From the NCBI GenBank assembly GCA_963713825.1, contig CAVQNG010000003.1:1728001-1792000 (forward strand): a stretch of 64,000 nt of DNA, written 5' to 3'. The DNA comes from an uncultured Acidobacteriota bacterium. GTDB taxonomy: Bacteria; Acidobacteriota; Thermoanaerobaculia; Multivoradales; JAHEKO01. Under the pieces are notes generated by a model that searched no databases, was not told the DNA's origin, and saw only the letters and a program-made list of their open reading frames with translations. The translations under genes were made by a program, and so were the position numbers. Shown here piece by piece: positions 27,955-43,360 of this stretch (the first letter of the stretch is position 1; the number at the start of each line of letters is the position of its first letter).

Positions 27955-28097
27955 ATTGCGGGAATTTGCGATGGACCCGGAACTCACGACCGTGGCAAAC
28001 GAGGTCCCATCACTCTAGAATCCGGCCGCCACTCGGAGAAGTGTGGCTCCGACTATCCGGTCCCCGACCGGGGTTCGATCTTAGAGGGCACTTGACG

Positions 28098-28676
28098 ATG
28101 ATGATGCCAGACTCTGGTTTGTGGGCCCTTGTCGGGATTCCCGTCATGATCTTCTTCGCGCGGATCATGGACGTCACCCTTGGAACGATGCGGATCATCC
28201 TCGTTTCCAAGGGACAGCGAAGCATCGCACCGTTCGTAGGTTTCTTCGAGATTCTGGTTTGGTTGGTGGCGATCGGGCAGGTCGTCCAGAACCTGGACCG
28301 GCCGCTCAACTACTTCGCCTACGCCGGTGGGTATGCTGCAGGGACCTGGCTGGGCTTGGCTTTGGATGAGAAGCTTGCTCTGGGACTCCTCGCCGTGCGG
28401 ATTATCACGCGAAAAGACGCGCAGGAGCTCATCGAGAACCTCAAGGAGAGTCAGTTCGGTGTCACGAGCGTGGCGGCGCGGGGATTGACCGGGCGGGTTC
28501 GCTTGATCTTTACCGTGGTGCGGAGGCGTGAGCTGAAACAGGTGATGGCTGTCATCCGGGCCCACAACCCGCAGGCTTTTGTCTCGGTCTCCGATGTGCG
28601 CGTGGCGACCGAGGGGTATTTCTCACCAACCAGCTCGACCTACCCACGTCTACTAGACTCGCTGCGGAAGAAGTAG
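28098..28676 (+). CDS. DUF2179/UPF0316-type membrane protein with C-terminal PII-like domain
   Basis: IFFARIMDVTLGTMR, GFFEILVW, YAGGYAAG, FGVT...G..G and I...NP.AF..V.DVR. Confidence 0.88.
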   Translation: MMMPDSGLWALVGIPVMIFFARIMDVTLGTMRIILVSKGQRSIAPFVGFFEILVWLVAIGQVVQNLDRPLNYFAYAGGYAAGTWLGLALDEKLALGLLAVRIITRKDAQELIENLKESQFGVTSVAARGLTGRVRLIFTVVRRRELKQVMAVIRAHNPQAFVSVSDVRVATEGYFSPTSSTYPRLLDSLRKK

Positions 28677-28718: not shown

Positions 28719-30950
28719 TCAGACGAGCTTGCCGGCGAACTCTCCAGCGTTACGAACGAAGACGGTGGTGTTCAGGCCCTCTGTCAGCTGTTCCATTCGC
28801 TCCGCGTATGCGGCCTCACCACCAACCGCGGGATCCTGAAGGCCGAGGAAGACCAAGTCGGCACCGGCACTGCAGCGGCGGATGATATCGGCAATCGATT
28901 CGTTCGGCGGCTTCATGAGGATCTCTGTGTCCGCATGAATGCGAACCTCTTGCAGCAGGGACTGCAACCCCTCCTGCTGGAGCTTCATCTCCTCTTCACT
29001 CCTCGAAATCGAGCGAATCACGATTCTCGCGTCGCTCCACTCCAGGTTCAGGCTGAGCAGGTAGGCGAGCATCAACATCATGTCCCCGTTATTCTCCAGG
29101 CCACCCCACCACAAGTCGATGCGCTTTTCCTGCCCTGGTTCGTGGGCCCAGTTGAGCCGCGCTATCAGAGTGCTCTTGCCGACTTTCGACAAACCCCGCG
29201 TGATGCGCAGCCAGGCCTCCAGCCGGCCTGGTTTCTGGGGCCAGCCCACGAGGACGGTGTTCGATTGCAGCCCGGCGATGCCATTGGCCTGTACAGCATC
29301 GATAACGCCGTGCTCGAAGTCATGGACGACATTCACCTCGCTGAATGCGACAAGCGCATTGCTGTCGAGTGCCCGGTCCATCTCGTCGTGCCACTGCTCG
29401 ACGTCGAAGTCCTCCTTGGTCAGGTCGCCGACCACCAACTGACTCGCGGTGACGATGCCACGGCCCTGGTTGAACCAGTTGGCAAGGCGTACGAGCCCGA
29501 TTCTCTTGTCGGGATCGCCGACGAACACGAGGATGTGCGGGCGCCAGTTGCGAGGATCTCGCCCATGCGACCGCAACTTCAGCAATGCAACTCGGGCGAT
29601 CGACATCCACACGCCAGCCCTCGCGTCGCCCCAACGTCGCTGCAGGGAGCGCCGCCGCAAGTACAGGTACAGCGCAGACTCGAGGCCGATCGCGATCACG
29701 CAGGCGACAGGGCTGATCAGAAACATCACGATAATAGCGCTCGCTGATCCGAGCAGAGAGGCGGCCCACGGAACCTTGATGGTCGGACGGTAGGACGGGT
29801 CGCCGGAGATCTTCTCTGCGGCGGCGCTCAAGTTGATGGTCACATAGAGAGTCAGAAAGAGAATGGTGACGAACTGCGCGACGGCGTTCAGTCCCCCGAG
29901 GGCGACCGCGATGAGCGCGATTGCACCGCTGATCCAAGTAGCGATGGTCGGCTGACCGCTCCTCGACAGGCGTGCCAGGAATCGCGGGGCCAAGCCGTCC
30001 TTGGCCAGCGCCTGCAGCACTCGAGGCCCTCCTAGGGCACTGCCGAAAGCCGACGACAGGATGGCTCCCAGCATTCCAGGAAAGACGAGCCAGACACCGA
30101 GAAAAGCCACAGCAGTCCAGGCGCCGACTCCCGGAACCGCCAGTTGCTCCGGACTCAGTCCGACTGTCACCGCTAGCAGTATCGGTACCAGCAGGTAGAC
30201 CAGTGTACCGGTCAGAACTGCCAGCAAGGTGCCGGCAGGGATCGAGCGTCGCGGGTTCTTCAGATCACCGCTCAATCCGATACCAGCCGTGAAGCCCGTT
30301 ACGGCTGGGAAGAAGACCGCGAAGACGTACCAGAATCCACCGCCGGCGCTGCGATAGGAGGGGGTGAGTGACGGAGCGTGAAAACCGTGAGCCAGGACGC
30401 CGGCCGTCAGGGCAATGAGAGAAGCGCCAACGGCGATCATGATCGGTATCTGGAGGCGCAGTGCCAGCCCCGCACTCTTCCCGGCCACGGCGGTGATGAC
30501 CACCACCGTCAGGGCAGCGATCAGTTGAACCAGCCTCGGGGACCCACCGTCCATTTGTGCTGGCAGTAGGGCGACGATGGCCTCGGCCAGACCAAAGGCG
30601 TAGAAAGTGATGCTCAGCGTGCGGCAGAGATAGAGAGGAATGCCGATAGCGCCACCCAGCTCGAGACCGAGACTGTGGGCCACCATGTAGTACTCCCCAC
30701 CGACCCCAACCCGCATGTTGGTGGCCAGGGCCGAGGCGCTCAGGGCCGTGATGAAGGTAACCGAGCTGGCGAGGAGCACGATCAGGACGGTCAGGGGCAG
30801 ACCCACGTTGCCCACGACCCAGCCGAAGCGCAGGTACATGATGAGGCCGAGAATCGTCAGGACACTCGGAGTGAAGACACCGAGAAAAGTGCCGAACTTC
30901 TCAGCTGGTGGATGCTCTGTGGCGGGGCCGCTCAGCTCGTCGCTGTCCAT
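28719..30950 (-). CDS. Prokaryotic cation-chloride cotransporter (CCC/SLC12 family)
   Basis: Motifs KFGTFLGVFTP, LGLIMYLRFGWVVG, GGEYYM...LG...GGAIG, FAVFFPAVTG..AG..LSGDLK.P..SIP.GT, RNWRPHILV and IDLWWGG. Confidence 0.92.
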   Translation of the reverse strand: MDSDELSGPATEHPPAEKFGTFLGVFTPSVLTILGLIMYLRFGWVVGNVGLPLTVLIVLLASSVTFITALSASALATNMRVGVGGEYYMVAHSLGLELGGAIGIPLYLCRTLSITFYAFGLAEAIVALLPAQMDGGSPRLVQLIAALTVVVITAVAGKSAGLALRLQIPIMIAVGASLIALTAGVLAHGFHAPSLTPSYRSAGGGFWYVFAVFFPAVTGFTAGIGLSGDLKNPRRSIPAGTLLAVLTGTLVYLLVPILLAVTVGLSPEQLAVPGVGAWTAVAFLGVWLVFPGMLGAILSSAFGSALGGPRVLQALAKDGLAPRFLARLSRSGQPTIATWISGAIALIAVALGGLNAVAQFVTILFLTLYVTINLSAAAEKISGDPSYRPTIKVPWAASLLGSASAIIVMFLISPVACVIAIGLESALYLYLRRRSLQRRWGDARAGVWMSIARVALLKLRSHGRDPRNWRPHILVFVGDPDKRIGLVRLANWFNQGRGIVTASQLVVGDLTKEDFDVEQWHDEMDRALDSNALVAFSEVNVVHDFEHGVIDAVQANGIAGLQSNTVLVGWPQKPGRLEAWLRITRGLSKVGKSTLIARLNWAHEPGQEKRIDLWWGGLENNGDMMLMLAYLLSLNLEWSDARIVIRSISRSEEEMKLQQEGLQSLLQEVRIHADTEILMKPPNESIADIIRRCSAGADLVFLGLQDPAVGGEAAYAERMEQLTEGLNTTVFVRNAGEFAGKLV

Positions 30951-30966
30951 GGATGAGGTCCCTACT

Positions 30967-33183
30967 CTACCTGCTGCTGATGAGGATGACCGGACAGTTG
31001 GTGGCGTTGATCAGTTGCCGTGTCATCGCACCGAAGACCCTGCGTCGAGAGCTCTGGCGCTGAATCCCCAGAACCAATAGACCGCAATCCGAAGACTCGT
31101 TCGTGAGAGCGCCGATCACATCGTCGCTTTCGAGAACCTGGACTTCGGCTCCTCGTGAGACCTCGTCACTGGCCAATGCAGCGACCTCGCGCCGGGCTTT
31201 CTGCTTCGCAGCTTCGGGGGTTCCCTCAGCCAGGACCCTGAGATATACGACCTCTCGATCTCCGTCGCGGCACAGGCTGCCCAGCAAGCGGGCGCGAAGC
31301 TTGCTCTGGTCGCGACGCCCGCCGACTGGGACCAGGACCCGTCGAGCGTCAGACAACTTCCACCCTTCAGGAGCGCGAAGGATCACGACATCGGATCCGA
31401 CGGCGCTGATGAAGTCCTCGAGACGAGATTCGACGCTCTCGGCCGTGACGTTTCCCAACCCGAGGAGCAGGCTCTCGCAACGGTGAAGGCGTGCCACTCG
31501 CCGTATCTCCGCCCAGGGATCCGGCGCGATGGTGGTCAACCATTCGGGATTGGCTCCGGCCGACAGGGAAAGCGACAGAGACTGATTCAAAATGGCTTCG
31601 ACATCGAGCAACTGCTGCGCAAGATCACCTCGGTGCCAGTCGCCAGGTGGCTGGACGACCGAGAGAAGCAGCACGCGCCCCGACTTCTGAGGTGCCAGAG
31701 CGTTCGCAACTTCAACCAGGCCTGCAGCGCTGCCAGGCTTTGCGATGGGTACCAGGACCAGCGGTGAGCGGCCGCGAAGTCGGACGAGATCCGGCTCCAT
31801 ACCCTCTTGGGATGCGTCCACCACGCGGGCTCGTCTGGCGAAGAGAAAGAAGTAGAGAATGAAACCGAGGCCCAACCAGACCATCACGACCCAACCTGCT
31901 TCGGGTACCGCCAATCCCTGAAACGCCGCGAGAGCGAGGCAGGCGCAACCTCCCAGGATCGGCACGAGGGGAAACCAGGGAACTCGGAAAGACGTTGCCG
32001 AAACTCCGCCACGGGTCTGAGCCAGGATATTGGTGCCATGAGCGATGGCGAAGGACAGGAGAAAGACCAGGCTGGCTGCGGCTCCAGCGGTGGCCACGTC
32101 CGGAACGAGGAGAAGGACTGCCAGGACCACAGCGACCGTTGCCACGATTGCCGTCATCGGTGTGCCGCGAGTCGAGTGGATGAAGCCGATGCTCTCGGGC
32201 AGGCTTCGATCTCGAGCCATGGTCAACGCCACCCGTGAGGCGGCGAGGAGGTTGGCGTGGAGGGCGGACAGCATGGAGAGCACCGCAGCGACGATGACCA
32301 GCCAGAATCCGAAGGGGCCGAGAAAATTTCTTGCGGCCTGTGCCACCACCGTAGCGGGATTCTGCTGGCTCATCTCCAAGATCGAGCCGCCTGCGTCCAC
32401 TCCGACAGTCGTGATGACGAAAAGCAGGGGAAGGTAGGTGGCCAGGGCAATCGCGAGCGACAGGATCATTGCTCTTGGAATCGTCTTGCGGGCATCTCGA
32501 ACCTCGCCGCCGACGGCGGCGATCAGATCGAAGCCTTGCAGGGCGATGAAGGTGAAGCCCATGGCCTGAAACAGCCCCAGGGAGCCGCCGGGGAAGAAGG
32601 GCCTCAGATTCGTTACCGCCGCGTCGGGAGATCGCTGAGCCAGCGCCCACAGGCCTCCCGCGATCAAGACGACGAAGACCAGAATCTTGCCCACGGTGGC
32701 CCACTGTCGGCCTCCTGGGCTACTCCGCACCAGTCCGACGCCGTAGAAGAGGATCGCGCCAGTCGCTAGAACGACCAGGACTACCCGGTGGCTCACCCAT
32801 TCGAAGCTTCTACCGAAGCTGGCTTGCAAGATGGTGTCGACAGCAGTGGCAGCGTAGGCAGCGAAACCCAACGCGTAGAGGACTGCGGCGACGATCGACG
32901 CCATCCAGACCACCCAACCCACAAGAAAGGCCGCCTCGCCCTCGAGCACCTTCTTGGCGAAAGAGTAGGTGCCTCCCGATTCGGGAAAGGCTGACGACAT
33001 TTCGGCGAAGCTCAGCACCGTGAGGAACGCGATCAGGCCATTCAGGGCGAAGGCCAGCATTGCGCTGGGGCCGGTGGCTGAAAAAGCCACCCCTGCCAGA
33101 GCCAGGATTCCTCCCCCGACGATGGCACCCACACCGATACCGGTGGCTCCCCAGAAGCCGATGGATCTTTGGTCTTCCGACAC
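30967..33183 (-). CDS. APC-family amino acid permease fused to two USP-like domains
   Basis: GVGAIVGGGI, AEMSSAFPESGG.Y, GFDLIAAVGGEV and SR....MARD. The cytoplasmic tail has VLVPIA and RVLVPVGG USP-type beta strands. Confidence 0.9.
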   Translation of the reverse strand: MSEDQRSIGFWGATGIGVGAIVGGGILALAGVAFSATGPSAMLAFALNGLIAFLTVLSFAEMSSAFPESGGTYSFAKKVLEGEAAFLVGWVVWMASIVAAVLYALGFAAYAATAVDTILQASFGRSFEWVSHRVVLVVLATGAILFYGVGLVRSSPGGRQWATVGKILVFVVLIAGGLWALAQRSPDAAVTNLRPFFPGGSLGLFQAMGFTFIALQGFDLIAAVGGEVRDARKTIPRAMILSLAIALATYLPLLFVITTVGVDAGGSILEMSQQNPATVVAQAARNFLGPFGFWLVIVAAVLSMLSALHANLLAASRVALTMARDRSLPESIGFIHSTRGTPMTAIVATVAVVLAVLLLVPDVATAGAAASLVFLLSFAIAHGTNILAQTRGGVSATSFRVPWFPLVPILGGCACLALAAFQGLAVPEAGWVVMVWLGLGFILYFFLFARRARVVDASQEGMEPDLVRLRGRSPLVLVPIAKPGSAAGLVEVANALAPQKSGRVLLLSVVQPPGDWHRGDLAQQLLDVEAILNQSLSLSLSAGANPEWLTTIAPDPWAEIRRVARLHRCESLLLGLGNVTAESVESRLEDFISAVGSDVVILRAPEGWKLSDARRVLVPVGGRRDQSKLRARLLGSLCRDGDREVVYLRVLAEGTPEAAKQKARREVAALASDEVSRGAEVQVLESDDVIGALTNESSDCGLLVLGIQRQSSRRRVFGAMTRQLINATNCPVILISSR

Positions 33184-33246: not shown

Positions 33247-34191
33247 TTACCTCAAGTTTCGCATTCGTTTGGAGATGAGGGAAGGCACAGAAAGGACGGG
33301 ACAACTCGCCGTCTGAATGACCCGCTTCGCTACGCTGCCCAGGAATTCTCGGCCAGCAGCGAACGAACCGCGTCCACCCAGTGCGATGACATCGACTTCT
33401 TCCTGATTCGCTGCCCGCACGATCTCCGCGGCCGGTATTCCGTCGCGCAACAGCACACGAGCTGCGGCCCCATCCAGTCCGAATGTGTTCGAGAGTACAG
33501 CCAGCCTCTCCTTCAGAAGAGCCCGGCATTCTGCGACGTACTCTCCCCACAACTGACTCACTGCGATGTCCCTGTCCAAGCCCTTCGGCGTGTGGAGGAC
33601 CGAAAGCAGCAACATGGACACGTCGCGCTCATGGACGCGGAAGATCTCCTGAGCCGCGATGGCTGCAGCGTCGGCTTCGATGGAGAAATCAGTAGCGACG
33701 AGAATTCGGTGGGGAAGAGAGGCTCCCAGCCTCGCCTTCGGCCCGACGCTCAGAACGGGACAACTCGCCCCTTCGGCCACGCGCTCGGTGGTGCTGCCCA
33801 CCAAAAGGTCGTCGACGCCCCCCTCACCTCGAGTGCCCATCACGATGAGACCAGCCCGCTCCCAATCCGCCACTTTCAAGATCGACACCGAGGGTCGATC
33901 GTGAAGGAGGTGGCTCTGCACAGGCTGATCCGGGCTCCGAATGCTTTCTGCCAACTCTGCCAGGCGACGATCTGCGTCCCCGATTGAGACCTCGGCGAGC
34001 GGAGACAAGATGTCGTGTCGGCTAAGCAGAGGTAACGTCCGGGACACCGCGTGGACCAAATGGAGTTGCGCCCCATGGGTGCGAGCGATCGTCATGGCCC
34101 ACGAGAGGGCCACATCCGATGGATCCGAGAAGTCGGTAGCGGAGACGATCGACCGCAGGGTGCGGGCGGACGGTTGGTTCACAGATTCCAT
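33247..34191 (-). CDS. Universal stress protein, tandem USP domains
   Basis: Two repeats of ATDFS and G..G......GS...RV...A.CPVL.V. Confidence 0.92.
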   Translation of the reverse strand: MESVNQPSARTLRSIVSATDFSDPSDVALSWAMTIARTHGAQLHLVHAVSRTLPLLSRHDILSPLAEVSIGDADRRLAELAESIRSPDQPVQSHLLHDRPSVSILKVADWERAGLIVMGTRGEGGVDDLLVGSTTERVAEGASCPVLSVGPKARLGASLPHRILVATDFSIEADAAAIAAQEIFRVHERDVSMLLLSVLHTPKGLDRDIAVSQLWGEYVAECRALLKERLAVLSNTFGLDGAAARVLLRDGIPAAEIVRAANQEEVDVIALGGRGSFAAGREFLGSVAKRVIQTASCPVLSVPSLISKRMRNLR

Positions 34192-34221: not shown

Positions 34222-36597
34222 TCAGACCTTCTGCTCGTGGATCTCGGCAAGAGTCAACTCCTTGAGGTGTTCCACCAGAGACACCAAGTGACGAATCTGT
34301 ATCTCCCAGATCGCCCTGCCCTTTTCCGCGGTGGCGAGGGTCGGATCGCCAAAAACGCCTGACTTCGAGATGTGCTCCGTTCTAGCGTACCAGCCAACGC
34401 TGTACTTGGAGGTGAAGTCCAGATACTTGGAGGAGAACTTCGGCACGAGTGCCTTCGCCTTCTTCATGTCGACCAACTCGGGCCGAACGGCGAGCGATGT
34501 GCTGGTCTCGATCTCGCCGGCGTGGACGTCATTCTTGGTCTCGGTGATGGCATAGATGTCCGTATCGCTAGTCTCGCCGCTGTCGACGCAGGTGAAGATC
34601 CGGGTGTCGCGGTTGATCATCTGAGCCGCATGGTGCAGGGTCGCCGAGTTTCCGCCGTGGCCGTTGATGATGATCAACTTGGCAATGCCGTTGCGCGCCG
34701 CACTGACTCCGACATCGTAAACGAACCTGGCCAAAGACTCGTTCGACACGCTCAGCGTGCCTGGAAAGCTGTCGTGATGATACGAAACACCATATGGGAT
34801 CAACGGAAGGACCAGGGGCCGAGGTTCTTGACAGGCCTTGGCCACCTCGTGGGCGAGATAGTCGGCGTCGAACGCATCGGTGTCCACGGGCAGGTGAGGG
34901 CCGTGCTGCTCGATCGCTCCAACCGGGAGCAGCGCTATGTCCACGCCCCGCAGGATCTTCTTCGCTTCCGGCCACGAGAGCTGGGCCCATTCATATCGTC
35001 CGTCGGCTGGCCTAGCGTTCTTGAGGCGTGGTCCCGAAGCGGGGTTTGGACCCGGCTTGGCGAGTAGGTTCTTGGCATTCAGGGCTGGATCGCCCAGCAG
35101 ATCGAATGGCACCCACTGTTTGCCATGATGCCGAAGAGACCCTTCGGCGTGCGACAGGAGAATCTCGTACAGGCGCCTCCGAATAGGCAAGGGCACCTCA
35201 TCGATCGGCGAGCGGTCCCTGTGGAAGCGCAGCATCAGCGGCTCGCGGCGGCGAGCGGCGCGGACATTGCCGATTCGGGGCTCGGAGATCAGCTGCTTTT
35301 CATGGAGTAGGGCCCCCATGTGCTCGACAGCAGCTCGTTCTTGGTGCACTCCCTTGTCGACCAAGCTTCTCAGGATTCCCTCCACCTGATCGGCTCGGTA
35401 GCCTGCCAGCGATGGGTTCAGATCGCAGGCCAGCAGCATCCCGGCGATCCGGCGGCACTTCTCGCACTTGCCGCAGGGGAGCATCTTGCCATCCACCTCA
35501 TGGGCCGCATGGCAGGAGACCTGCAGCTCGAGCAAGGATGGGTAGCGCTCGGCCAGGGTCTTCTGGATGAGGAGCTCCGACATGGGCCTCAGAGCGGAAA
35601 GCTGCCGGACTCCCCAGTGCTTTTTCGCGTAGTAGCGGCTCAGAGCATGGTCGAAGTAGCGGCTCTGATCATAGAGGCCATCGAAGTGCGGAACTCCCCT
35701 ATGGGAGGCCTTGACAGTGGTGTCGTATTCGTCGCCGATCAGCAGGTGACCGATTCCCCGCTTGCGGAGCAATGGAAGTGCTCCGAAAAGGAACACAGCG
35801 ACGGTCCACAGACGAATCGGATACTCGTCCGATCGCAGACGTTGAAAGTCGGGGCGTACGAGGGACAAATGCCGCAGCATCCAGTTGAAGATCCGGTCCG
35901 AGTTGGTCCAGACCCGGGAGGTGTTTGGCACTGTCCGCCTGAACTCGCGGAAAGCGTTGATGGCGGTGAACCAGTGACGGCCCGACTCGTTGATGTAGAT
36001 CGGATGCACGTCGCACTCCAGCTCACGGAGCAGGCCAAAGGTAAGGAGGCTGTCCTTGCCGCCGCTGGAGAGAACCGAGTACAGGTCCGAGTCGCCCTGC
36101 CAGCCAGTGAAGGTTCCGGCGACTGCGGGCTCGAAGAGGACCCGAGCGTTTACGTAGTTGTCTCGTCGCTCGAGGGGCAGGCCAGCAAACTCGGGCGTCA
36201 AGAAGGCGTTGGGCTGTTGGATCTTCTTGACGTAGATCTCGCGTGCGGTATTGGCGAGCATCTCCTGGACGAATCGTCGATCCGTAGCATCGAAGTGGCC
36301 ATCAAACACGATCTCCTTGCAGAACAGACCGTAGTTCAGAGCCACCTGAACCGCGATCATGCTCGCCAGGTTCGAGCTGGCGGGATCCTCCGGGTCGAAG
36401 ACCTCCTCTTCGTAGCGGTACGTAAGCCTCTCTTCGTAGGTGTTCCCGTCTCTGGATACGACGAATGGTGCGATGAGCTGATTCGGCTTCGTGATGACCG
36501 GACCAACGGTCAGCTTGTCGATAACCTGGAGAACCGAAAGGGGATCCTCTTTCCCGATCGCTCGGCCTTGCTGGAGGTGGGCTTCGGTGGCGGACAT
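34222..36597 (-). CDS. Fusion of a MurL-like PP-loop (adenylating) domain and a creatininase-family amidohydrolase
   Basis: The N-terminal ~510 aa carry SGGKDS at ~aa 178, LRPMSEL and SCH...PCGKCEKC. The C-terminal ~260 aa carry PVGAIEQHGPHLP.DTD, FPGT, NGHGGN and HAGEIETS. SD AAGGAGAG. Confidence 0.82.
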   Translation of the reverse strand: MSATEAHLQQGRAIGKEDPLSVLQVIDKLTVGPVITKPNQLIAPFVVSRDGNTYEERLTYRYEEEVFDPEDPASSNLASMIAVQVALNYGLFCKEIVFDGHFDATDRRFVQEMLANTAREIYVKKIQQPNAFLTPEFAGLPLERRDNYVNARVLFEPAVAGTFTGWQGDSDLYSVLSSGGKDSLLTFGLLRELECDVHPIYINESGRHWFTAINAFREFRRTVPNTSRVWTNSDRIFNWMLRHLSLVRPDFQRLRSDEYPIRLWTVAVFLFGALPLLRKRGIGHLLIGDEYDTTVKASHRGVPHFDGLYDQSRYFDHALSRYYAKKHWGVRQLSALRPMSELLIQKTLAERYPSLLELQVSCHAAHEVDGKMLPCGKCEKCRRIAGMLLACDLNPSLAGYRADQVEGILRSLVDKGVHQERAAVEHMGALLHEKQLISEPRIGNVRAARRREPLMLRFHRDRSPIDEVPLPIRRRLYEILLSHAEGSLRHHGKQWVPFDLLGDPALNAKNLLAKPGPNPASGPRLKNARPADGRYEWAQLSWPEAKKILRGVDIALLPVGAIEQHGPHLPVDTDAFDADYLAHEVAKACQEPRPLVLPLIPYGVSYHHDSFPGTLSVSNESLARFVYDVGVSAARNGIAKLIIINGHGGNSATLHHAAQMINRDTRIFTCVDSGETSDTDIYAITETKNDVHAGEIETSTSLAVRPELVDMKKAKALVPKFSSKYLDFTSKYSVGWYARTEHISKSGVFGDPTLATAEKGRAIWEIQIRHLVSLVEHLKELTLAEIHEQKV

Positions 36598-37682
36598 GAA
36601 CCTCTCTCCTTGGAGTTCAAGAAGGGCTGAAGCGCGTCAATGACGGCTCCACACCCTTCGCGTAAGGGATAGCAGGCAGGTAGTCCCGTTCTCTGTTGGG
36701 TACTCTTCTTTGCAGACGATGCTGCGTGTGTCGCTAGATGCTCGTCGTTCAGTGTGATCGCAACCACTGGCTTTCCAGAGATCAACTCGATGGCCTCGAT
36801 CTGGGTTTCCAGCGGGTGAATTGGATAGCCCGGAAAGCCGTCGTACTCGGCTCGGGCCGGAGCATGCTGCAACACGACGACGTCTGGTCGCCCGGCTGCC
36901 AGAAGCTCGAAGCCTCCAGGATAGGCGGGGTTCATCAAGCTGCCCTGTCCTTCCAACAGGATCACATCTGGGCGCTCTTCGTTCCATGCCGTCCATACGG
37001 CATGCTCGATTTCACCGGTTACAAAGTCGTTGACCAGGGAGTCCAGGATGACCCCGTATCGAGCCCCTTGCATCCAGGCGGTCTGTCCGGTACCCACTAG
37101 TTCTGTAGAGCGGCCTCGGATTTCCAGTCCGTCTCGCAACATCCAGGCGGTTGTACGTTTTCCGACAGCCGAGTCCGTTCCCAGCACAGCGACCTTCAGG
37201 CACGCGACTTCCTCGATCTTGCCGCTGAAGAAGTGCATATTCTTGATTGGAGGGGGCTTTCGCACATCACGAATCTTCACACCACGCTCAGCTGCGGCAG
37301 CCGAAATCTCGGCATCGTCGCTCAGGAATTCGTGCAACCCCGAGTCGATATTCAACCCTGCATGGATGGCATCAAGAACGTTCCGTCGTCCAGATTCTGG
37401 CAAGCGACCTCCGTCTGGTGCCAACCCGACGACGAAGTGGGTGGCAGGAGCGCCCTGCAACCGAGCTTTCAAGAGCGCCTCGGAAAGATCCTCAGTAATC
37501 CGGATTCCGTTCCAGTTGTGGTCGAGAACCTCTCCTGCATCGCGCCCGGCCAGGCCGGAATCAACAACGGCCAGGATTCGATATCGCGCAGAGCGGCGAA
37601 CCAGTCCGTGGGCCGTTTTCCCGTAGGTAGTGCCAAATGCACCTTCGCAATACACGATTGCATTGCCTTCTGGATGTTTCAT
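36510..37682 (-). CDS. DUF1611 protein (DgcN-like D-glutamate N-acetyltransferase family)
   Basis: GKTAHGLVR, G.APDGGRLP, GLHEFL.DD, P-loop-like GTDSAVGKRTT, GTGQT and EGQGSL..PAY. Confidence 0.88.
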   Translation of the reverse strand: MKHPEGNAIVYCEGAFGTTYGKTAHGLVRRSARYRILAVVDSGLAGRDAGEVLDHNWNGIRITEDLSEALLKARLQGAPATHFVVGLAPDGGRLPESGRRNVLDAIHAGLNIDSGLHEFLSDDAEISAAAAERGVKIRDVRKPPPIKNMHFFSGKIEEVACLKVAVLGTDSAVGKRTTAWMLRDGLEIRGRSTELVGTGQTAWMQGARYGVILDSLVNDFVTGEIEHAVWTAWNEERPDVILLEGQGSLMNPAYPGGFELLAAGRPDVVVLQHAPARAEYDGFPGYPIHPLETQIEAIELISGKPVVAITLNDEHLATHAASSAKKSTQQRTGLPACYPLREGCGAVIDALQPFLNSKERGSCPPPKPTSSKAERSGKRIPFRFSRLSTS

Positions 37683-38755
37683 TTCTTCCTCCCTGTGAGG
37701 ATTGCTACGTATCGGTCGCCTGAGAACGGGTCTTCAGAATGTCTCTCGAGTAGAGAGATCAGGCCAGCGGTCGCTGCCGGCAGTACATTCAGACTCTCCT
37801 CCTCCGCCAGCTTGCGAGTCGTCTGGAGCATCGCTTTGTCACTGACATTGGATGCCCAGCCACCGCTCGATCGGATCGCGTCGAGGGCGAGATCGCCGTC
37901 CAGAGAGTTCCAATTGATCAGGGGCTCGTTGACAGCGGTTTCGCGAATCTTCTCCGGACTTAGTGGCTCACAGTGGAGCAGATTCTTGCGGTAGGAGCGA
38001 ACAATGGGATTCTTGCCGTAGGTGGAGCCCGCCGCCATGCGAGGAATGCGCGACGTCTTACCCCTTCTGTAGAGGCTGATGAAACCCTTGTGGATTCCCG
38101 CCAGGGTCGTTCCGTTCGAAACTGGAACTGCTACCACTGCGGGTGCGTCCCTCAGCTCGTCGTAGATCTCGTAGGCGATCTGTCCGTAGGCGCTGAGCTG
38201 AATCGCGGTGTTGGCGCCGCCCGGATTGGCATCGTAGAACTCGTGTTGGTCCGCCAGCTGTTGCGAGGCTTCGACCGCACGTTCGTAGTCGCCCGGCACC
38301 CGGCGAATCGTGGCCCTCTCGGATTCGATCTCCTGGATCCGTCGTGTTTGGTACCCGGCTGGAATCAGAATCACCGCTTCGAGCCCGGCCAGTCGAGCTG
38401 CCTCGGCGACGGCTACTCCGTAGTTACCGCAGGTGGCCACGGTGACGGTGTCGAAACCACGGCGCAGCGCATCCATGACCTGAGCGAAGGCGATGCGGTC
38501 CTTCTGGGTGCCGCTGGGGTTCGCGCCTTCGAACTTCAGGAACAGCTGGCGCAGGCCGGTCTCCCGCTCGAGGTGGCGGCCGCGGGTCAACGCTGTATCA
38601 CCGACCTCCGACTCGAAGATGTCCTCGTACCATTCGAGACGCTCCTCGATTGAGAGCTCCGGATCGGCGGCGCTCTCCATGGCCTTGCGGATACGAGGTC
38701 CTTGTAGCGGTTGGCCCACCGCGCCGTCCAGCAGGTTGAAACTCTGCTCGCTCAT
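37679..38755 (-). CDS. PLP-dependent enzyme, threonine-synthase-like (fold type II), atypical subfamily
   Basis: LFLKFEGANPSGTQKDR (PLP lysine), ATCGNYG, PVSNGTT and VAILTG. Its stop overlaps the DUF1611 start (ATGA coupling). Confidence 0.87.
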   Translation of the reverse strand: MSEQSFNLLDGAVGQPLQGPRIRKAMESAADPELSIEERLEWYEDIFESEVGDTALTRGRHLERETGLRQLFLKFEGANPSGTQKDRIAFAQVMDALRRGFDTVTVATCGNYGVAVAEAARLAGLEAVILIPAGYQTRRIQEIESERATIRRVPGDYERAVEASQQLADQHEFYDANPGGANTAIQLSAYGQIAYEIYDELRDAPAVVAVPVSNGTTLAGIHKGFISLYRRGKTSRIPRMAAGSTYGKNPIVRSYRKNLLHCEPLSPEKIRETAVNEPLINWNSLDGDLALDAIRSSGGWASNVSDKAMLQTTRKLAEEESLNVLPAATAGLISLLERHSEDPFSGDRYVAILTGRKK

Positions 38756-38780
38756 CGACCTGATCTCGGGGGTAGGATGC

Positions 38781-39320
38781 CTAGCGTTTTGGGCCGCCCC
38801 GCGGGCGGTGAATCCGTCTGTCGACAATGACCGAAGGGTTGTCGTACTCGAAGTCGTCATCCGGCAGATCGTCATCGATCTCGTCGAATCCGAGATCCTC
38901 GCTCACGTCGGGCCCTGTCGATATCCAATCAACTCGAGCCGGTCGCTCCTGTCTCAAGGTCGATTTAAGCTCCTCAAAGGACTCGCAGAGCTGGTCCCAG
39001 GAGTCACCGATGCGCTCGACGACATCCTCTCGGGAGGCGTTGCCCTGCGCAAAGCAGCTCCTGATCTCCATGCGAAGCATGAGGGCTTCGCGGTAGATCT
39101 CCTCGGCCTCCACGGCGAGATTGGGGAGCTCGTTCGCATCGTCATAGGTGGAACGGGCTTCGAGCCCGGCCACTCGGGCCATGAAGCGCTTGAGCTCTCG
39201 GTCGAGATCCTTGAGGTATCTCTTCCCGGATCTCGCGGCAGATCTCTCGCTGCTGTGGGCTCCGACAACCCATTCATCCTGCTGTCGATCACGGTGCCTG
39301 GGCGTTGCCTTCTTGCTCAT
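38781..39320 (-). CDS. Hypothetical protein, helical/coiled-coil with an acidic C-terminal region; first gene of the sigma54 operon
   Basis: 179-aa ORF with SD GGAGGAAGGA. It lies directly downstream of the sigma54 box and carries a DEIDDDLPDDDFEYD tract. Confidence 0.65.
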   Translation of the reverse strand: MSKKATPRHRDRQQDEWVVGAHSSERSAARSGKRYLKDLDRELKRFMARVAGLEARSTYDDANELPNLAVEAEEIYREALMLRMEIRSCFAQGNASREDVVERIGDSWDQLCESFEELKSTLRQERPARVDWISTGPDVSEDLGFDEIDDDLPDDDFEYDNPSVIVDRRIHRPRGGPKR

Positions 39321-39383
39321 GTTCCTTCCTCCAGTGGTTCGTCCTGTGCTCGAATTTGTGGAGCGTAGACGAGGAGTCCAAAG

Positions 39384-39398
39384 GCAAATTGGATGCCA
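39384..39398 (-). promoter_or_regulatory. Sigma54 (RpoN) -24/-12 promoter
   Basis: The minus strand reads TGGCA-TCCAAT-TTGC, with exact consensus spacing (TGGCA-N6-TTGC). It sits ~64 bp upstream of ATG 39320, next to a divergent bEBP gene. Confidence 0.8.
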
Positions 39399-39493
39399 AT
39401 TCCGCCCAGGCGCTCCAGAACCTGAAGAGAGTAGTCATTCTGCTGCGATTTCCAGTATTGGAGGATTTCGAATCAGGGGGGCGGCGGTATGTT

Positions 39494-39552
39494 TCGGAAT
39501 AAGAATACCGACAAGAAAAGAATTGATTTACCGATCGGAAATAGAATACAGT
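39494..39552. promoter_or_regulatory. Candidate paired upstream activator sequences for the bEBP
   Basis: TCGGAATAAGAATACCGA (39494-39511, imperfect palindrome) and TCGGAAATAGAATACAGT (39535-39552) are 41 bp apart. They lie ~100-150 bp upstream of the sigma54 box in an AT-rich stretch. Confidence 0.55.
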
Positions 39553-39573
39553 TTCAGTCGGGAGGACGACCCT

Positions 39574-41016
39574 ATGCTAATTCGCCTTCTTCTTCTCGTC
39601 GAAACGAGCGACCTGCGCGGTCGCCTCGCAGAGTCCTTGGCTGAGCTTGGAGCGCTGGTGTTCGTCGAGTCCGAACCCGACAGGCTCTGGGGTCGCCTCG
39701 GGGAAGATTCCTTCGATCTCGTGGTAGCCACCCGGTCGATGCTTCCTACCGATGTCGAAAGATCGATCGAAGAGATTCGCGAGCTGCCGTACCGGCCGGA
39801 GGTGATCGTCTTGGCGGATCTCGCCGAGGCGGAAGAGCGGACAGCCCTCCAGAAGGGCGGCGCTTTTGCCGTGATCGACAAGACGCTGTCGCCGGAGCCT
39901 CTGATCCAGACCCTCCGCACGGTTCTATTGCGTTTTCAAGAGCTCGGTGTCAGTCGATTGAGAGAGTCTCGTTCGCAGCGCTCGAGACTCGATGACTTCG
40001 CCTCCGAGAGCCCAGCCATGCGGCGACTCCTCGAGCTTGCTCGGCGTGTCTCCAATACCGACACATCGTTGTTGGTTCTCGGGGAAACGGGTGTCGGCAA
40101 GGAATGGTTGGCGCGGGCGATCCACTCGGAAGGTGCCCGCAGCGCTTTGCCCTTCATTGCGGTCAACTGCGCTGCAGTACCGGAGACCCTTTTGGAGAGC
40201 GAGCTTTTCGGGCACGAGAGGGGGGCCTTCACCGGCGCTGTCCGCGCCCGCCGAGGTTGCTTCGAGCTCGCTCATCGCGGCACCCTGTTCCTGGACGAGA
40301 TCGGTGACATTCCGGTCCATCTTCAGGCCAAGCTGCTACGGGCCCTTCAGGAGAGAGAGATCCAGCGCCTGGGTGCGGAGAGCTCGATGCGGGTGGACGT
40401 TCGGGTTATCGCGGCCACGAACCAGAATCTGGAACTGGCGATCGAAGATGGGCTGTTCCGGCCGGATCTCTTCTACCGGCTGAGCGTGGTGACCCTGACC
40501 ATACCTCCACTTCGAGAAAGACGAGAGGACATTGTGCCACTGATCGAGAACTACCTGGAGGATTTCCGTCAGCAGATGGGTCGCTTGGACATCGAGGGGA
40601 TCGAAGAGTCAGCGCTCGAAGCCATGTGCAACTACGAATGGCCGGGCAATGTCCGCGAGCTCATCAACGTCGTGGAGCGGGCCACGTTGCTGTGTGATGG
40701 AGAGGTGATCACGGACGAGCACCTTCCTGATGCCATAGCCGGCGGTTTGCACCCCTACCTGCAGACGGAGGGTTCCGGCGATCCGTCCTCTGCCTTCGAG
40801 CCTCTTCTGGGCGGGGCCTTGGCGGCAGGCAGGAACCAACTGGTGGAGTCGTTCGAGCGAGAGTATCTCTCGAGGCTACTCGAACGGACTTCCGGCAACA
40901 TCGCGGAAACGGCTCGTACCGCAGGCATCGATCCACGCACCCTCTACAACAAGATGAAGGCCTACGATCTGCGCAAGGAAGACTTCCGAGCGTCGCCGCG
41001 TCGGCCTCGACAGTAG
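39574..41016 (+). CDS. Sigma54-dependent enhancer-binding activator (NtrC family) with degenerate receiver domain
   Basis: Motifs GETGVGKE, ESELFGHERGAFTGA, GTLFLDEIG, FRPDLFYRL and WPGNVREL, plus a Fis-type HTH. SD GGGAGG before ATG 39574. Confidence 0.93.
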   Translation: MLIRLLLLVETSDLRGRLAESLAELGALVFVESEPDRLWGRLGEDSFDLVVATRSMLPTDVERSIEEIRELPYRPEVIVLADLAEAEERTALQKGGAFAVIDKTLSPEPLIQTLRTVLLRFQELGVSRLRESRSQRSRLDDFASESPAMRRLLELARRVSNTDTSLLVLGETGVGKEWLARAIHSEGARSALPFIAVNCAAVPETLLESELFGHERGAFTGAVRARRGCFELAHRGTLFLDEIGDIPVHLQAKLLRALQEREIQRLGAESSMRVDVRVIAATNQNLELAIEDGLFRPDLFYRLSVVTLTIPPLRERREDIVPLIENYLEDFRQQMGRLDIEGIEESALEAMCNYEWPGNVRELINVVERATLLCDGEVITDEHLPDAIAGGLHPYLQTEGSGDPSSAFEPLLGGALAAGRNQLVESFEREYLSRLLERTSGNIAETARTAGIDPRTLYNKMKAYDLRKEDFRASPRRPRQ

Positions 41017-41031: not shown

Positions 41032-42102
41032 CTACGGTTCGACGACGAGAACGCTCGACGCCAGATCTTCGGACACCCGATCCTCGAGGCCGACGGCCTC
41101 GGAGCGCAGCCGTAGCAACTGGGAAGGCTTGACTCCCTTGGGCAACTTGCCGAGATTGCAGACCGGCTCACCCGGACTGATCGCGGGTAGCGTCGTCATG
41201 CCGATGACGGCAGCATTGAAAGGGGCGGTCAGAAAGCTGCGCTCGCGTCCGAGCAGGGTCGTATTCGTCGCAATCGGGTCGTCCTTGTCGATGATGTCTC
41301 CTGGATGGACATGGAACCGAAGAAATCCGCCCAGCTCAGCGCGAATCCACTTCGACTTCTCGATGACGAGCTGATATTTGGGGCGTTCCAGGTCACCGTC
41401 GAGCATGTCGAGGCTGCGAAGAACGTTCTTGATTCCCCGCTCCGCGGATTCGACGATGGCGGGCTCGACCTTCCAGACCTCGCCGCCTTCCATGATGATG
41501 GTCGGGCAACCGGCTCGACAGGCAGCACGGCGAAAGGCACCCTTGGGGCCGATTCCGTTCATGATGATCTCCGATCCGAACGCCTCCGCGAGCCGTCGCA
41601 CCTCAGGGTCGCTCATATCGGCGCGCACATTTGGATAGTTCGTGCGACGAACGGCCGCGGTATGCAGGTCGATGCCATAGTCGCACCGCATTACGATCTC
41701 ATCGAAGATCGCGTGTGCCATCCGGCTGGCGAGACTTCCTGTCGAGGATCCAGGAAACGACCGGTTCAGGTCGCGCCGATCCGGCAGATAGCGGGAATGC
41801 CGTTCAAAGGCGGGGAGGTTGAGCACGGGCACGAGAATGACTGCACCACGTCGTAGCTGGAATTCTTCGTCCTTGATCAAGTGACGAACCGCTCCTGTTC
41901 CATTGATCTCGTCCCCGTGAAGAGCGGCCGTGACGAAAACGACCGGACCGTCCTCGGTTGCGCGGCGAATGTGAATTGGAATTTGTACCGTCATGCTGCT
42001 GTAGCTTTCGCCCACAGCGAGATAGACGTCGCGTGACTCACCCGCCGCAATGGCCATGCCGTTCCACTCGTCGATCGGCTTTCGTTGGCGAGGCTCGGTC
42101 AT
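41032..42102 (-). CDS. Succinylglutamate desuccinylase/aspartoacylase-family (M14-like) deacylase
   Basis: Motifs AALHGDEING, SRYLPDRRDLNRSFPG, GIDLHT and EGGE, with a C-terminal barrel-sandwich segment. Confidence 0.92.
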   Translation of the reverse strand: MTEPRQRKPIDEWNGMAIAAGESRDVYLAVGESYSSMTVQIPIHIRRATEDGPVVFVTAALHGDEINGTGAVRHLIKDEEFQLRRGAVILVPVLNLPAFERHSRYLPDRRDLNRSFPGSSTGSLASRMAHAIFDEIVMRCDYGIDLHTAAVRRTNYPNVRADMSDPEVRRLAEAFGSEIIMNGIGPKGAFRRAACRAGCPTIIMEGGEVWKVEPAIVESAERGIKNVLRSLDMLDGDLERPKYQLVIEKSKWIRAELGGFLRFHVHPGDIIDKDDPIATNTTLLGRERSFLTAPFNAAVIGMTTLPAISPGEPVCNLGKLPKGVKPSQLLRLRSEAVGLEDRVSEDLASSVLVVEP

Positions 42103-42109
42103 GGCTGTC

Positions 42110-43360
42110 TCAGCCCGCTACCGGTGTGTCTGAATCGTCAGGCGATGGGCTCGGGGTGGTCAGGACCTCATCGGCTACCGGCAGGTCGGGTAGTTCCTGG
42201 GTCTTGGGGCGTCGACTGCGGCGCACCTTGGCCGGAATCAGCCCCCGCATCAGGTCGAGCTTGCCGAAGCAGAGCAGCCGATCGCCAGCTTCCAGCAGCC
42301 GATGCGATCGCGGATTCGGAATGACGGTCGTGCCACGGTAGAGCGTCAGCACGTTGATGTCCCTATCGCGCAAACCCGACTCGTTGATCGCCTTACCGAC
42401 GTACTCCGAACCTTCTGGAATATGAATCTCGGTAACACCATAGCCCCGACTCACGGTCAGGCGCTGGCGCAGGTCGATCTCCGGAAAGTCGACTTGAGCG
42501 GCAATGTAGTCGATGATCGCCCCGGCCACATCGAGCTGTGTGGCCCCCTCGATGCCTTCCAGACCGGGCGAGGAATTCACTTCCATGATCTGAGGTCCAT
42601 CGCGGCCCTCGAGCATGTCCACGCCAGCAACTCGTAGCCCCATGATCTGGGCGGCTCTCACGGCGGTCTCACTGTAGGTCGGATCGAGAGTGAGGGGTTC
42701 GGTTCGACCGCCACGATGGACATTGCTGCGGAACTCCTGACCCTGTGCGACCCGGCGCATGGCGGCAACCACCTGGTCGCCCACAACAAAGGCCCGGATG
42801 TCCCGACCCTTGCTCTCGGCGACGAACTTCTGGATCAGCACGTTCTGCTTTTGGAGTTGGAGCAGCTCGATAATCGCTTCAGCCGAGCTGGCGGACTCGG
42901 CGAGCAGCACGCCGATGCCCTGCGTGCCTTCCAGCAGCTTGATGACGACCGGCGCCCCTCCCACTCTGTCGATTGCCGGCAATACATCTCTCTTGTCGCG
43001 AACGAAGGTCGTCTCCGGGATACCGATCTGATGTCGGCTCAGGATCTGCAAACTGCGGAGCTTGTCTCGAGAGTTGGTGATGCCCGCCGACGAGTTAGCG
43101 CAAAAGACATCCATCTGCTCGAACTGTCGCACCACTGCTGTTCCGAAGTAGGTGATGGACGCGCCGATTCGCGGCAGCACTGCATCATATTGAGACAGAT
43201 GCTTTTGCCGGAAAAAAAGGTCCGGAGCGCCTGCCCGCAAGTCAATCGCGAACTTCAAGGTGTCGAGGACCTTGATCTGGTGCCCTCGTTGCTCCGCCGC
43301 CTCGCGGAGTCGTCGTGTGCTGTAGCAGCGTGGGCTGCACGACAGGATTCCAAGTTTCAT
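42110..43360 (-). CDS. rimK: RimK-family ATP-grasp alpha-L-glutamate ligase with C-terminal TrkA-C (RCK_C) domain
   Basis: YSTRRL.EAA..RGH, PRIGAS.T, SRDKLRSLQIL, KLLEGTQGIGV, EFRSNVHRGG and EVNSSPGLEGIE. The C-terminal EIHIPEGSEYVGK.I....LR...INVL...RG...PNP.....LEAGDRL matches RCK_C. Confidence 0.93.
   Translation of the reverse strand: MKLGILSCSPRCYSTRRLREAAEQRGHQIKVLDTLKFAIDLRAGAPDLFFRQKHLSQYDAVLPRIGASITYFGTAVVRQFEQMDVFCANSSAGITNSRDKLRSLQILSRHQIGIPETTFVRDKRDVLPAIDRVGGAPVVIKLLEGTQGIGVLLAESASSAEAIIELLQLQKQNVLIQKFVAESKGRDIRAFVVGDQVVAAMRRVAQGQEFRSNVHRGGRTEPLTLDPTYSETAVRAAQIMGLRVAGVDMLEGRDGPQIMEVNSSPGLEGIEGATQLDVAGAIIDYIAAQVDFPEIDLRQRLTVSRGYGVTEIHIPEGSEYVGKAINESGLRDRDINVLTLYRGTTVIPNPRSHRLLEAGDRLLCFGKLDLMRGLIPAKVRRSRRPKTQELPDLPVADEVLTTPSPSPDDSDTPVAG

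Follow-up and report, generated by a model that had tools for sequence, protein, structure and literature searches.

A MurL-like domain fused to a creatininase-family amidohydrolase in a conserved DUF1611 gene cassette

Introduction

What chemistry might be carried out by a protein that joins a relative of an ATP-dependent epimerase to an amidohydrolase? The question is raised by a gene at positions 34222-36597, minus strand, of a 64,000-nucleotide (nt) stretch of DNA from an uncultured Acidobacteriota bacterium (the whole stretch is called the window below, and its genome G000). The gene is a single open reading frame (ORF) of 791 residues, which encodes a MurL-like domain followed by a creatininase-family domain. 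Databases label the product 'creatininase family protein', and no published description of a MurL-like::creatininase fusion or of the gene cassette to which it belongs was found in the literature, supplements not covered. To our knowledge, no ATP-dependent peptide epimerase other than MurL has been described. The fusion gene directly follows a DUF1611 gene, and in the catabolism of D-glutamate a DUF1611 N-acetyltransferase, DgcN, is reported to act together with DgcA, an enolase-type N-acetyl-D-glutamate racemase. An earlier note on this DNA, made from the sequence letters, had proposed that the fusion possibly takes over the roles of DgcA and DgcH. We find that the fusion is the third gene of a conserved cassette, behind a ThrC-like pyridoxal 5'-phosphate (PLP) enzyme and the DUF1611 protein, and that the same cassette mostly contains an enolase-type epimerase of its own.

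A MurL-like domain with a QueC-like core

The fusion protein and the parts of it that bear on its assignment are the following.

34222-36597, minus strand: fusion protein of 791 residues, with a MurL-family domain at about residues 19-500, a linker and a creatininase-family domain at residues 538-775.
35008-36597, minus strand: N-terminal 530 residues, used as the search query; a MurL-like domain whose PP-loop core is QueC-like; AlphaFold2 (AF2) model with a predicted local distance difference test score (pLDDT) of 87.9 and a predicted template-modelling score (pTM) of 0.87.
36049-36066, minus strand: PP-loop SGGKDS, the ATP pyrophosphatase signature, residues 178-183.
35455-35517, minus strand: cysteine motif SCH-x10-PCGKCEKC, residues 361-381.
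34222-34986, minus strand: creatininase-family metal amidohydrolase domain (PF02633), residues 538-775, GHGGN subtype.

The two domains are separated by a stretch of low model confidence (pLDDT below 50 at residues 514-530). Since a fusion-length ORF was found again in 73 of 80 related loci, their joining is not a chance event; these 80 loci, to which the counts out of 80 below refer, were kept from a scan of one genome per species that yielded at least 575 loci encoding relatives.

The PP-loop had been placed some 178 residues into the protein, and its position at 36049-36066 is exact. The motifs listed after it, IGDE (residues 287-290), LRPMSEL (residues 336-342) and the cysteine motif, are likewise all present, but the spacer within the last is 10 residues long and not 9. 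In an alignment of 37 homologues, S177 to S183 are invariant except for D182 (conserved in at least 90%), so that five of the six SGGKDS residues never vary; D289, E290, H304, S361, C362, H363, C375, C378 and C381 are invariant as well. The four invariant cysteines align both with the cysteine cluster of QueC and with the SCN...WC..C.KC motif of MurL. Common to MurL and the fusion family are the PP-loop, E290, H304 and the SC...C..C.KC motif.

According to two reviews, MurL depends on ATP and Mg2+, gives off AMP and converts only L to D; it is described there as a protein without known conserved domains and with an unknown mechanism (PMC5808125, PMC8788868). Alignment of the profile of the fusion family with a MurL-family profile in hhalign gave a probability of 97.7% (E 2.5e-12) over 433 columns, which correspond to query residues 19-494 and span essentially all of MurL; the homology is whole-length and reaches beyond the PP-loop core. 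In the control, a QueC profile matched the family profile at 26.8% probability (E 6.9e-4) over the 186-column core only. The NCBIfam models separate the two in the same way: NF041275 (MurL) is matched by 37 of 37 family members at E<=0.1 (best 3.3e-9), whereas none of the 37 matches the QueC model TIGR00364 (cut-off 150.3 bits) at that threshold. The earlier view that the N-terminal part stands nearer to MurL than to QueC is thus borne out.

The MurL-family genes behind the profile were collected with the NCBIfam model from a sample of 401 genomes of the phylum to which G201, the genome of locus L073, belongs; nine of them matched at E<=1e-10. No true MurL equivalog above 700 bits was found among these 401 genomes, and the profile therefore consists of nine sequences, two murD2-linked genes of about 300 bits and seven more distant ones. 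Both reference genes (L094 and L095) reach their score over nearly the whole MurL model and are directly followed by a Mur-ligase-family gene, an arrangement as in murL-murD2. With one of these murD2-linked MurL proteins the fusion shares 23% identity over 335 residues (BLASTP, E 1e-6). Aligned on its own with NF041275, the fusion protein scores 14.9 bits (E 0.0069) at residues 330-383 only, against an equivalog cut-off of 700 bits, and hence its domain is not a MurL equivalog. Among the 30 nearest clusters in the ESM Atlas, 27 carry the MurL Pfam families, named there MurL_N and MurL_epimerase_C (score 0.94); two unnamed clusters score 0.96 and 0.95.

The nearest solved folds to the AF2 model of residues 1-530 are QueC structures (Foldseek; 2pg3 and 3bl5, E 2.5e-5 to 1.6e-4), with a template-modelling (TM) score of 0.68-0.72 on the target. 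Entries 9y01 and 9nto come next, and the proteins that follow QueC in this search are QatC, Cap9 and YcfA. No MurL structure was among the matches in the PDB, and a QueC-like core is expected for MurL and QueC alike. A Pfam scan of the N-terminal 530 residues found no family even at E<=10, the MurL models seemingly being missing from that Pfam set, and a sequence and profile search of the PDB with this part gave nothing significant, with PP-loop fragments appearing at E~1 only. The domain therefore has the QueC-like PP-loop ATP-pyrophosphatase fold together with the C-terminal cysteine cluster. While the core itself is QueC-like, the domain is assigned to MurL by its profile matches and by the additional segments at its N- and C-terminal ends. 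Residues from about 19 to 500 thus represent the MurL superfamily in full length, with a four-cysteine site and a PP-loop core like that of QueC.

The QueC control sequences came from nine other genomes of the window's phylum (the G024 locus was excluded), because none was found in G000 or 12 of its relatives: QueC (TIGR00364) was not found at E<=1e-20 in G000 and 12 relatives (0 of 13 genomes). It is present in 38 of 41 genomes sampled from the phylum, and de novo queuosine synthesis may be missing in the lineage of G000.

The creatininase-family domain

The C-terminal domain matches PF02633 over profile positions 1-238 of 238 (E 8.5e-71; 238.6 bits against a gathering threshold of 31.3). Alignment with Pseudomonas creatininase (1q3k) shows that E563-x-H565, D574, H647, H692 and E697 are kept, residues which we take to be the metal ligands of the domain. 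The full profile and these residues agree with the previous description of a complete creatininase domain with E-x-H, D, H and E. The glutamate two residues past the second histidine is replaced by glycine in the fusion, giving the sequence GHGGN, which 3no4 and 3lub also show. Among named families the peptidase MftE matches best (148 bits), but the domain stays below the equivalog cut-offs of MftE (TIGR03964; 147.9 against 172 bits) and of creatininase (TIGR04448; 106.4 against 235), and it scores 72 bits with the IolN model, whose cut-off is 245.

A conserved gene cassette

Two genes on the same strand precede the fusion gene.

36510-37682, minus strand: DUF1611 protein with a Rossmann-like N-terminal domain and a P-loop C-terminal domain; DgcN-like, 157 bits (156.8) against a cut-off of 480.
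37679-38875, minus strand: ThrC-like PLP enzyme of fold type II; PRK06381, 413.7 bits against a cut-off of 266.

The 36510-37682 protein contains both Pfam domains of DUF1611, and its ORF overlaps that of the fusion by 88 nt, so the fusion does directly follow a DgcN-like gene, as had been stated. The PLP gene probably starts at the ATG at 38755; its product scores 111 bits with TIGR00260 (cut-off 167) and matches solved threonine synthases at E 1e-25 to 1e-22.

This gene order is conserved. DUF1611 stands adjacent to the fusion and ahead of it, in the same order and strand, in 79 of 80 loci, the exception being L020, where no DUF1611 gene lies between the PLP gene and the fusion. The PLP gene, which the earlier note had not included, stands ahead of DUF1611 in 69 of 80 loci, again in the same order and strand; for 10 of the 11 loci without it, the contig ends at most 250 nt ahead of the DUF1611 match. 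The remaining one, L050, has no PLP match despite 8.8 kb of upstream sequence. In all 80 loci the creatininase part follows the MurL-like part.

At least 575 species genomes encode a relative. The carriers, most of them uncultured, belong to Acidobacteriota, Desulfobacterota, Planctomycetota, Ignavibacteriota, Gemmatimonadota, Latescibacterota, Calditrichota and further phyla. A word-based protein search scored 8000 candidates and counted 2865 relatives in this set. The distribution within the window's phylum is patchy, with the cassette in 10 of 201 sampled genomes. Bacteria of sediments and anaerobic bacteria often carry it, and for them the turnover of D-amino acids and peptides is important. 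The creatininase Pfam domain was detected on 107 of the 120 relatives listed, the other 13, of 472-545 residues, being without it. One 855-residue protein (P0128) joins DUF1611 to the MurL-like domain in a single chain. Two further MurL-like::creatininase fusions, P0162 and P0170, are only 28-35% identical to that of the window, and the fusion is therefore either old or arose more than once.

Few other neighbours recur in the 80 loci: genes for YitT/DUF2179 (in 10) and DUF5698-DUF2179 (in 7) proteins, MgtE (in 8) and CorA (in 6), and an amino-acid permease with a universal stress protein (Usp) tail, which lies near the cassette in seven. L063 and L083 are among the loci with such membrane-protein neighbours.

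The enolase-type epimerase

The replacement of DgcA by the fusion can be judged from the fourth gene of the cassette. An enolase-superfamily gene of about 355 residues (MR_MLE_N and MR_MLE_C) directly follows the fusion in 69 of the 80 loci, mostly within 66 nt. Five loci are too short downstream for a judgement, which leaves the epimerase in 69 of 75 informative loci; it is missing despite at least 1.2 kb of downstream sequence in L013, L014, L015, L016, L018 and L066. Among the carriers of the four-gene form is a cultured bacterium, delta proteobacterium NaphS2 (L039). The best NCBIfam match of the cassette epimerases is the Thermotoga L-Ala-D/L-Glu epimerase (209-247 bits), compared with 149-162 bits for DgcA, both models remaining below cut-off. 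No enolase-type epimerase was found in the 64-kb window by tblastn at E<=1e-3, so that the observation behind the earlier note, the absence of a DgcA-type enolase from the window, stands. The generalization drawn from it does not: with both genes in 69 of 75 informative loci, the fusion is not a general replacement of DgcA, and the mutual exclusivity of fusion and dgcA beside DUF1611, which was checked here, fails by the same count.

A FastTree phylogeny was built from 74 fusion proteins of at least 700 residues (L016 and other short or broken copies were left out), with two divergent fusions as the root. L013, L014, L015 and L018 form one group with the fusion of the window (SH-like support 100), and this group lies within Acidobacteriota sequences. 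The two rows nearest to it in the tree are L042, which has the four-gene form, and L052, whose downstream sequence is too short to judge. Because the epimerase-less clade is nested in this way, with the four-gene L042 nearby, the missing epimerase in the Thermoanaerobaculia clade of the window is probably a secondary loss. This three-gene variant offers a natural test case for the MurL-like domain acting alone. In the same clade the position of the epimerase is occupied by a tandem Usp gene, behind which some members have two APC-type permease genes.

Related genes elsewhere in the genome

G000 has three DUF1611 genes, each beside a different racemase- or epimerase-type gene, the partner of the one in the window being the MurL-like domain of the fusion. 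On contig 4 (L113, 5875-8082), DUF1611 is accompanied by an enolase-type dipeptide epimerase and an 864-residue D-aminopeptidase/amidohydrolase fusion, and on contig 34 (L115, 1670-4023) by an ornithine-racemase-like (Orr-like) PLP enzyme (345 bits, cut-off 480).

The window contains no Mur-ligase domain, and the genome has seven Mur_ligase_M matches, the nearest about 155 kb from the fusion, in line with the earlier statement that there are no mur genes nearby. The search for glutamate racemase MurI (TIGR00067) was negative in G000 (96% complete), in the congener G119 (100% complete) and in most sampled genomes of the family of G000.

Neighbouring genes and regulation

The remaining features around the cassette are these.

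33247-34191, minus strand: tandem Usp gene, 31 nt after the fusion, in the usual position of the enolase-type epimerase.
28719-33183, minus strand: two closely spaced APC-type permease genes, one with a Usp tail and one with an SLC12-like tail.
38781-39320, minus strand: acidic 179-residue ORF of no family, ahead of the PLP gene.
39383-39398, minus strand: sigma-54-type -24/-12 element TGGCAT-N5-TTGCC, 63 nt upstream of the 179-residue ORF.
39148-41016, plus strand: NtrC-type sigma-54 activator (receiver, AAA+ and HTH_8 domains), divergent from the cassette.

The permease genes are likely co-transcribed in the clade of the window only. At the end of the permease run lies a gene for a DUF5698-DUF2179 membrane protein (27966-28676, plus strand). 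Upstream, the 179-residue ORF is probably the first gene of the operon; its product has no NCBIfam family and no usable ESM Atlas match, and it is conserved only in the closest Thermoanaerobaculia loci (L013, 62%; L016, 59%; L018, 42%; L015, 35%). The GG and GC cores of the sigma-54-type element are invariant in five related loci. The ORF of the activator is probably over-extended at its 5' end, with the true start at the ATG at 39574, which is preceded by the Shine-Dalgarno-like sequence GGAGGA; relatives align only from about residue 129-143. Of the 80 loci, 23 have a homologue of this activator close to the cassette.

Beyond the activator gene, a RimK-type ATP-grasp ligase with a TrkA_C tail adjoins an AstE/AspA-like deacylase (41032-43360, minus strand). 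A few Acidobacteriota loci (L033 and L038) also have this pair, which is not part of the cassette; a link between the pair and the cassette was rejected on co-occurrence, with RimK in 4 and the AstE-like gene in 3 of 80 loci.

Discussion

For the cassette as a whole we favour a reading to which we assign a probability of about 0.4, namely that the fusion uses ATP to adenylate the carboxylate of an N-acylated amino acid or small peptide, inverts the stereocentre and then hydrolyses an amide. Homology, motifs, fold and conserved gene order are what is observed; all of the chemistry, the reaction direction and the kind of substrate are inferred from them, as follows. By analogy with DgcN, the DUF1611 protein would make an N-acylated amino acid or small peptide. 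The MurL-like domain would then adenylate the free alpha-carboxylate of the acylated substrate, converting ATP to AMP and pyrophosphate (PPi). Adenylation may render the alpha-proton exchangeable, either directly or via an oxazolone-type ring, so that the centre could be inverted, as proposed for MurL. The fused creatininase domain would hydrolyse the amide or the ring and thereby free the product, and the PLP enzyme may either make the substrate or consume the product. The relationship to MurL, the conserved linkage to DUF1611 and the PLP gene, the single-chain DUF1611::MurL-like protein P0128, the intact metal ligands of the creatininase domain and the pairing of all three DUF1611 genes of G000 with racemase- or epimerase-type genes speak for this scheme.

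Several points weigh against it. In the 69 of 75 informative cassettes that have an enolase-type epimerase as well, an epimerase role of the MurL-like domain looks redundant, and with 23% identity and 14.9 of 700 bits the function of MurL need not be conserved. The other characterized enzymes with this core that we know of, QueC, Cap9 and QatC, form amide bonds and do not epimerize. For the acyltransferase role proposed for the DUF1611 protein, DgcN is the single precedent, and the analogy is drawn at 157 of 480 bits. The hydrolase is not obligatory, because 13 of the 120 listed MurL-like relatives have no creatininase Pfam match. The data point to no particular substrate, and glutamate is not singled out.

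The main rival, a serious one that we rate only somewhat less probable, is that the MurL-like domain acts as an ATP-dependent ligase or cyclase, in which an amine, free or intramolecular, attacks the adenylated carboxylate to give an amide, lactam or amidine, as in QueC, Cap9 and QatC. The enolase-type enzyme would then do the epimerizing, the creatininase domain would open or trim the amide, and the cassette would serve to make or alter a small compound, either an amino-acid amide or a dipeptide-like one. The strongest argument for such an activity is that most cassettes contain both enzymes, so that the epimerase is already supplied. The nearest solved folds are those of QueC, QatC and Cap9, and the recurrent neighbours (YitT/DUF2179, DUF5698-DUF2179, MgtE and CorA) belong to membrane or ion-transport families and not to catabolic ones. 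The enzyme that gives the creatininase family its name hydrolyses a cyclic amide. Against a ligase or cyclase, the profile is far nearer to MurL than to QueC (97.7% compared with 26.8%), the domain has the extra N- and C-terminal parts of MurL, the clade of the window retains the cassette without the enolase epimerase, and the DUF1611 genes of G000 are all paired with racemase-type genes.

Two more specific proposals concern glutamate. In the scheme of the earlier note, DUF1611 N-acetylates D-Glu, the MurL-like domain substitutes for DgcA as the epimerase of N-acetyl-Glu and the creatininase domain for DgcH as the deacetylase, or else the substrate is the terminal Glu of RimK products. The order of the domains, the DgcN-like neighbour, the window free of enolase epimerases and the RimK and AstE-like genes 4.4-6.8 kb upstream of the fusion all fit it. 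We nevertheless consider it very improbable, as DgcA-type genes accompany the fusion in 69 of 75 informative loci, the conserved PLP enzyme is left without a role and the genome has a separate DUF1611-enolase pair on contig 4. Glutamate as the substrate finds no backing in a DgcN score of 157 against 480 bits or elsewhere in the data, and the scarcity of RimK and AstE-like genes near the cassette (4 and 3 of 80 loci) speaks against RimK products, as does the divergent regulator gene between them and the cassette. What survives is part of the DgcN-DgcA logic: each of the three DUF1611 genes does stand beside a racemase-type gene, although the replacement of DgcA fails family-wide. The second proposal is that in the clade of the window the cassette supplies D-Glu, or another D-amino acid, for the cell wall in place of the missing MurI, as a free-amino-acid counterpart of the MurD2/MurL route. 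Neither G000 nor its fully complete congener G119 has a detectable MurI, MurL works from L to D only, and among 25 relatives the cassette is present in 9 of the 13 without a MurI match above cut-off and in 2 of the 12 with MurI. These genomes, however, are close kin, and the association may therefore reflect a single event. Four of them lack both MurI and the cassette (completeness 75-96%, G606 among them), of the 10 genomes with the cassette in the phylum sample 5 do have MurI, and sigma-54 control together with the occurrence in 10 of 201 genomes fits an accessory function. A D-amino-acid transaminase is the classical alternative source of D-Glu, and G000 has a gene of that likeness (contig 3, 850328-851125; PRK06680, 210 bits, cut-off 320). 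Given the kinship, the MurI genes in half of the cassette-positive genomes and this transaminase-like gene, we regard a role in D-Glu supply as very improbable. We likewise give little credence to the most specific form of the idea, an ATP-driven one-way inverter of a free amino acid that would acylate, adenylate and invert, and deacylate to make D-Glu in the clade without MurI and without the reversible enolase epimerase of the cassette; if true, this would be a third, hitherto undescribed route to D-Glu, on the free amino acid, beside MurI/Dat and MurD2/MurL.

Comparison with known systems

The adenylation and inversion that we favour take MurL as their model. The fusion domain shares with MurL whole-length homology (hhalign 97.7%, 433 columns) and the order of the motifs, that is the PP-loop GGKDS, an acidic motif, a conserved histidine, xSxLRPxSEx and SC...C..C.KC; activation of a carboxylate with conversion of ATP to AMP is a presumed likeness. 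It differs in its low identity (23%) and model score (14.9 against 700 bits), in the attached creatininase domain, and in its setting within a PLP-DUF1611 cassette. MurL lies beside a murD2-type ligase, whereas the fusion has no Mur ligase within about 155 kb, and from this gene context its substrate cannot be the UDP-MurNAc dipeptide. With QueC, QatC and Cap9 the fusion has in common the PP-loop and the C-terminal cysteine cluster, which are aligned in hhalign. QueC, however, aligns over a core of about 190 residues only, to which the fusion adds about 150 residues before and about 120 after, as MurL does.

The likeness to DgcN-DgcA lies in a DUF1611 gene beside a stereo-inverting enzyme and in a possible logic of acylation, inversion and deacylation; most cassettes also have an enolase-type epimerase. 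These epimerases, in contrast, score higher for the Thermotoga L-Ala-D/L-Glu epimerase than for DgcA, and the cassette adds the PLP enzyme, the ATP-dependent MurL-like domain and the creatininase domain. To the creatininase family, with creatinine amidohydrolase, MftE and the ArfB deformylase, the C-terminal domain is related by the full-length PF02633 match and the kept residues; its fusion to an ATP-dependent domain is an arrangement that was not found in the literature. By these comparisons, MurL is assigned to the QueC-like PP-loop fold together with a sister family of much greater size, and E290, H304 and the four-cysteine site, common to both, are named as candidate catalytic residues. 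What is new is a MurL-superfamily enzyme in a new architecture and a new pathway.

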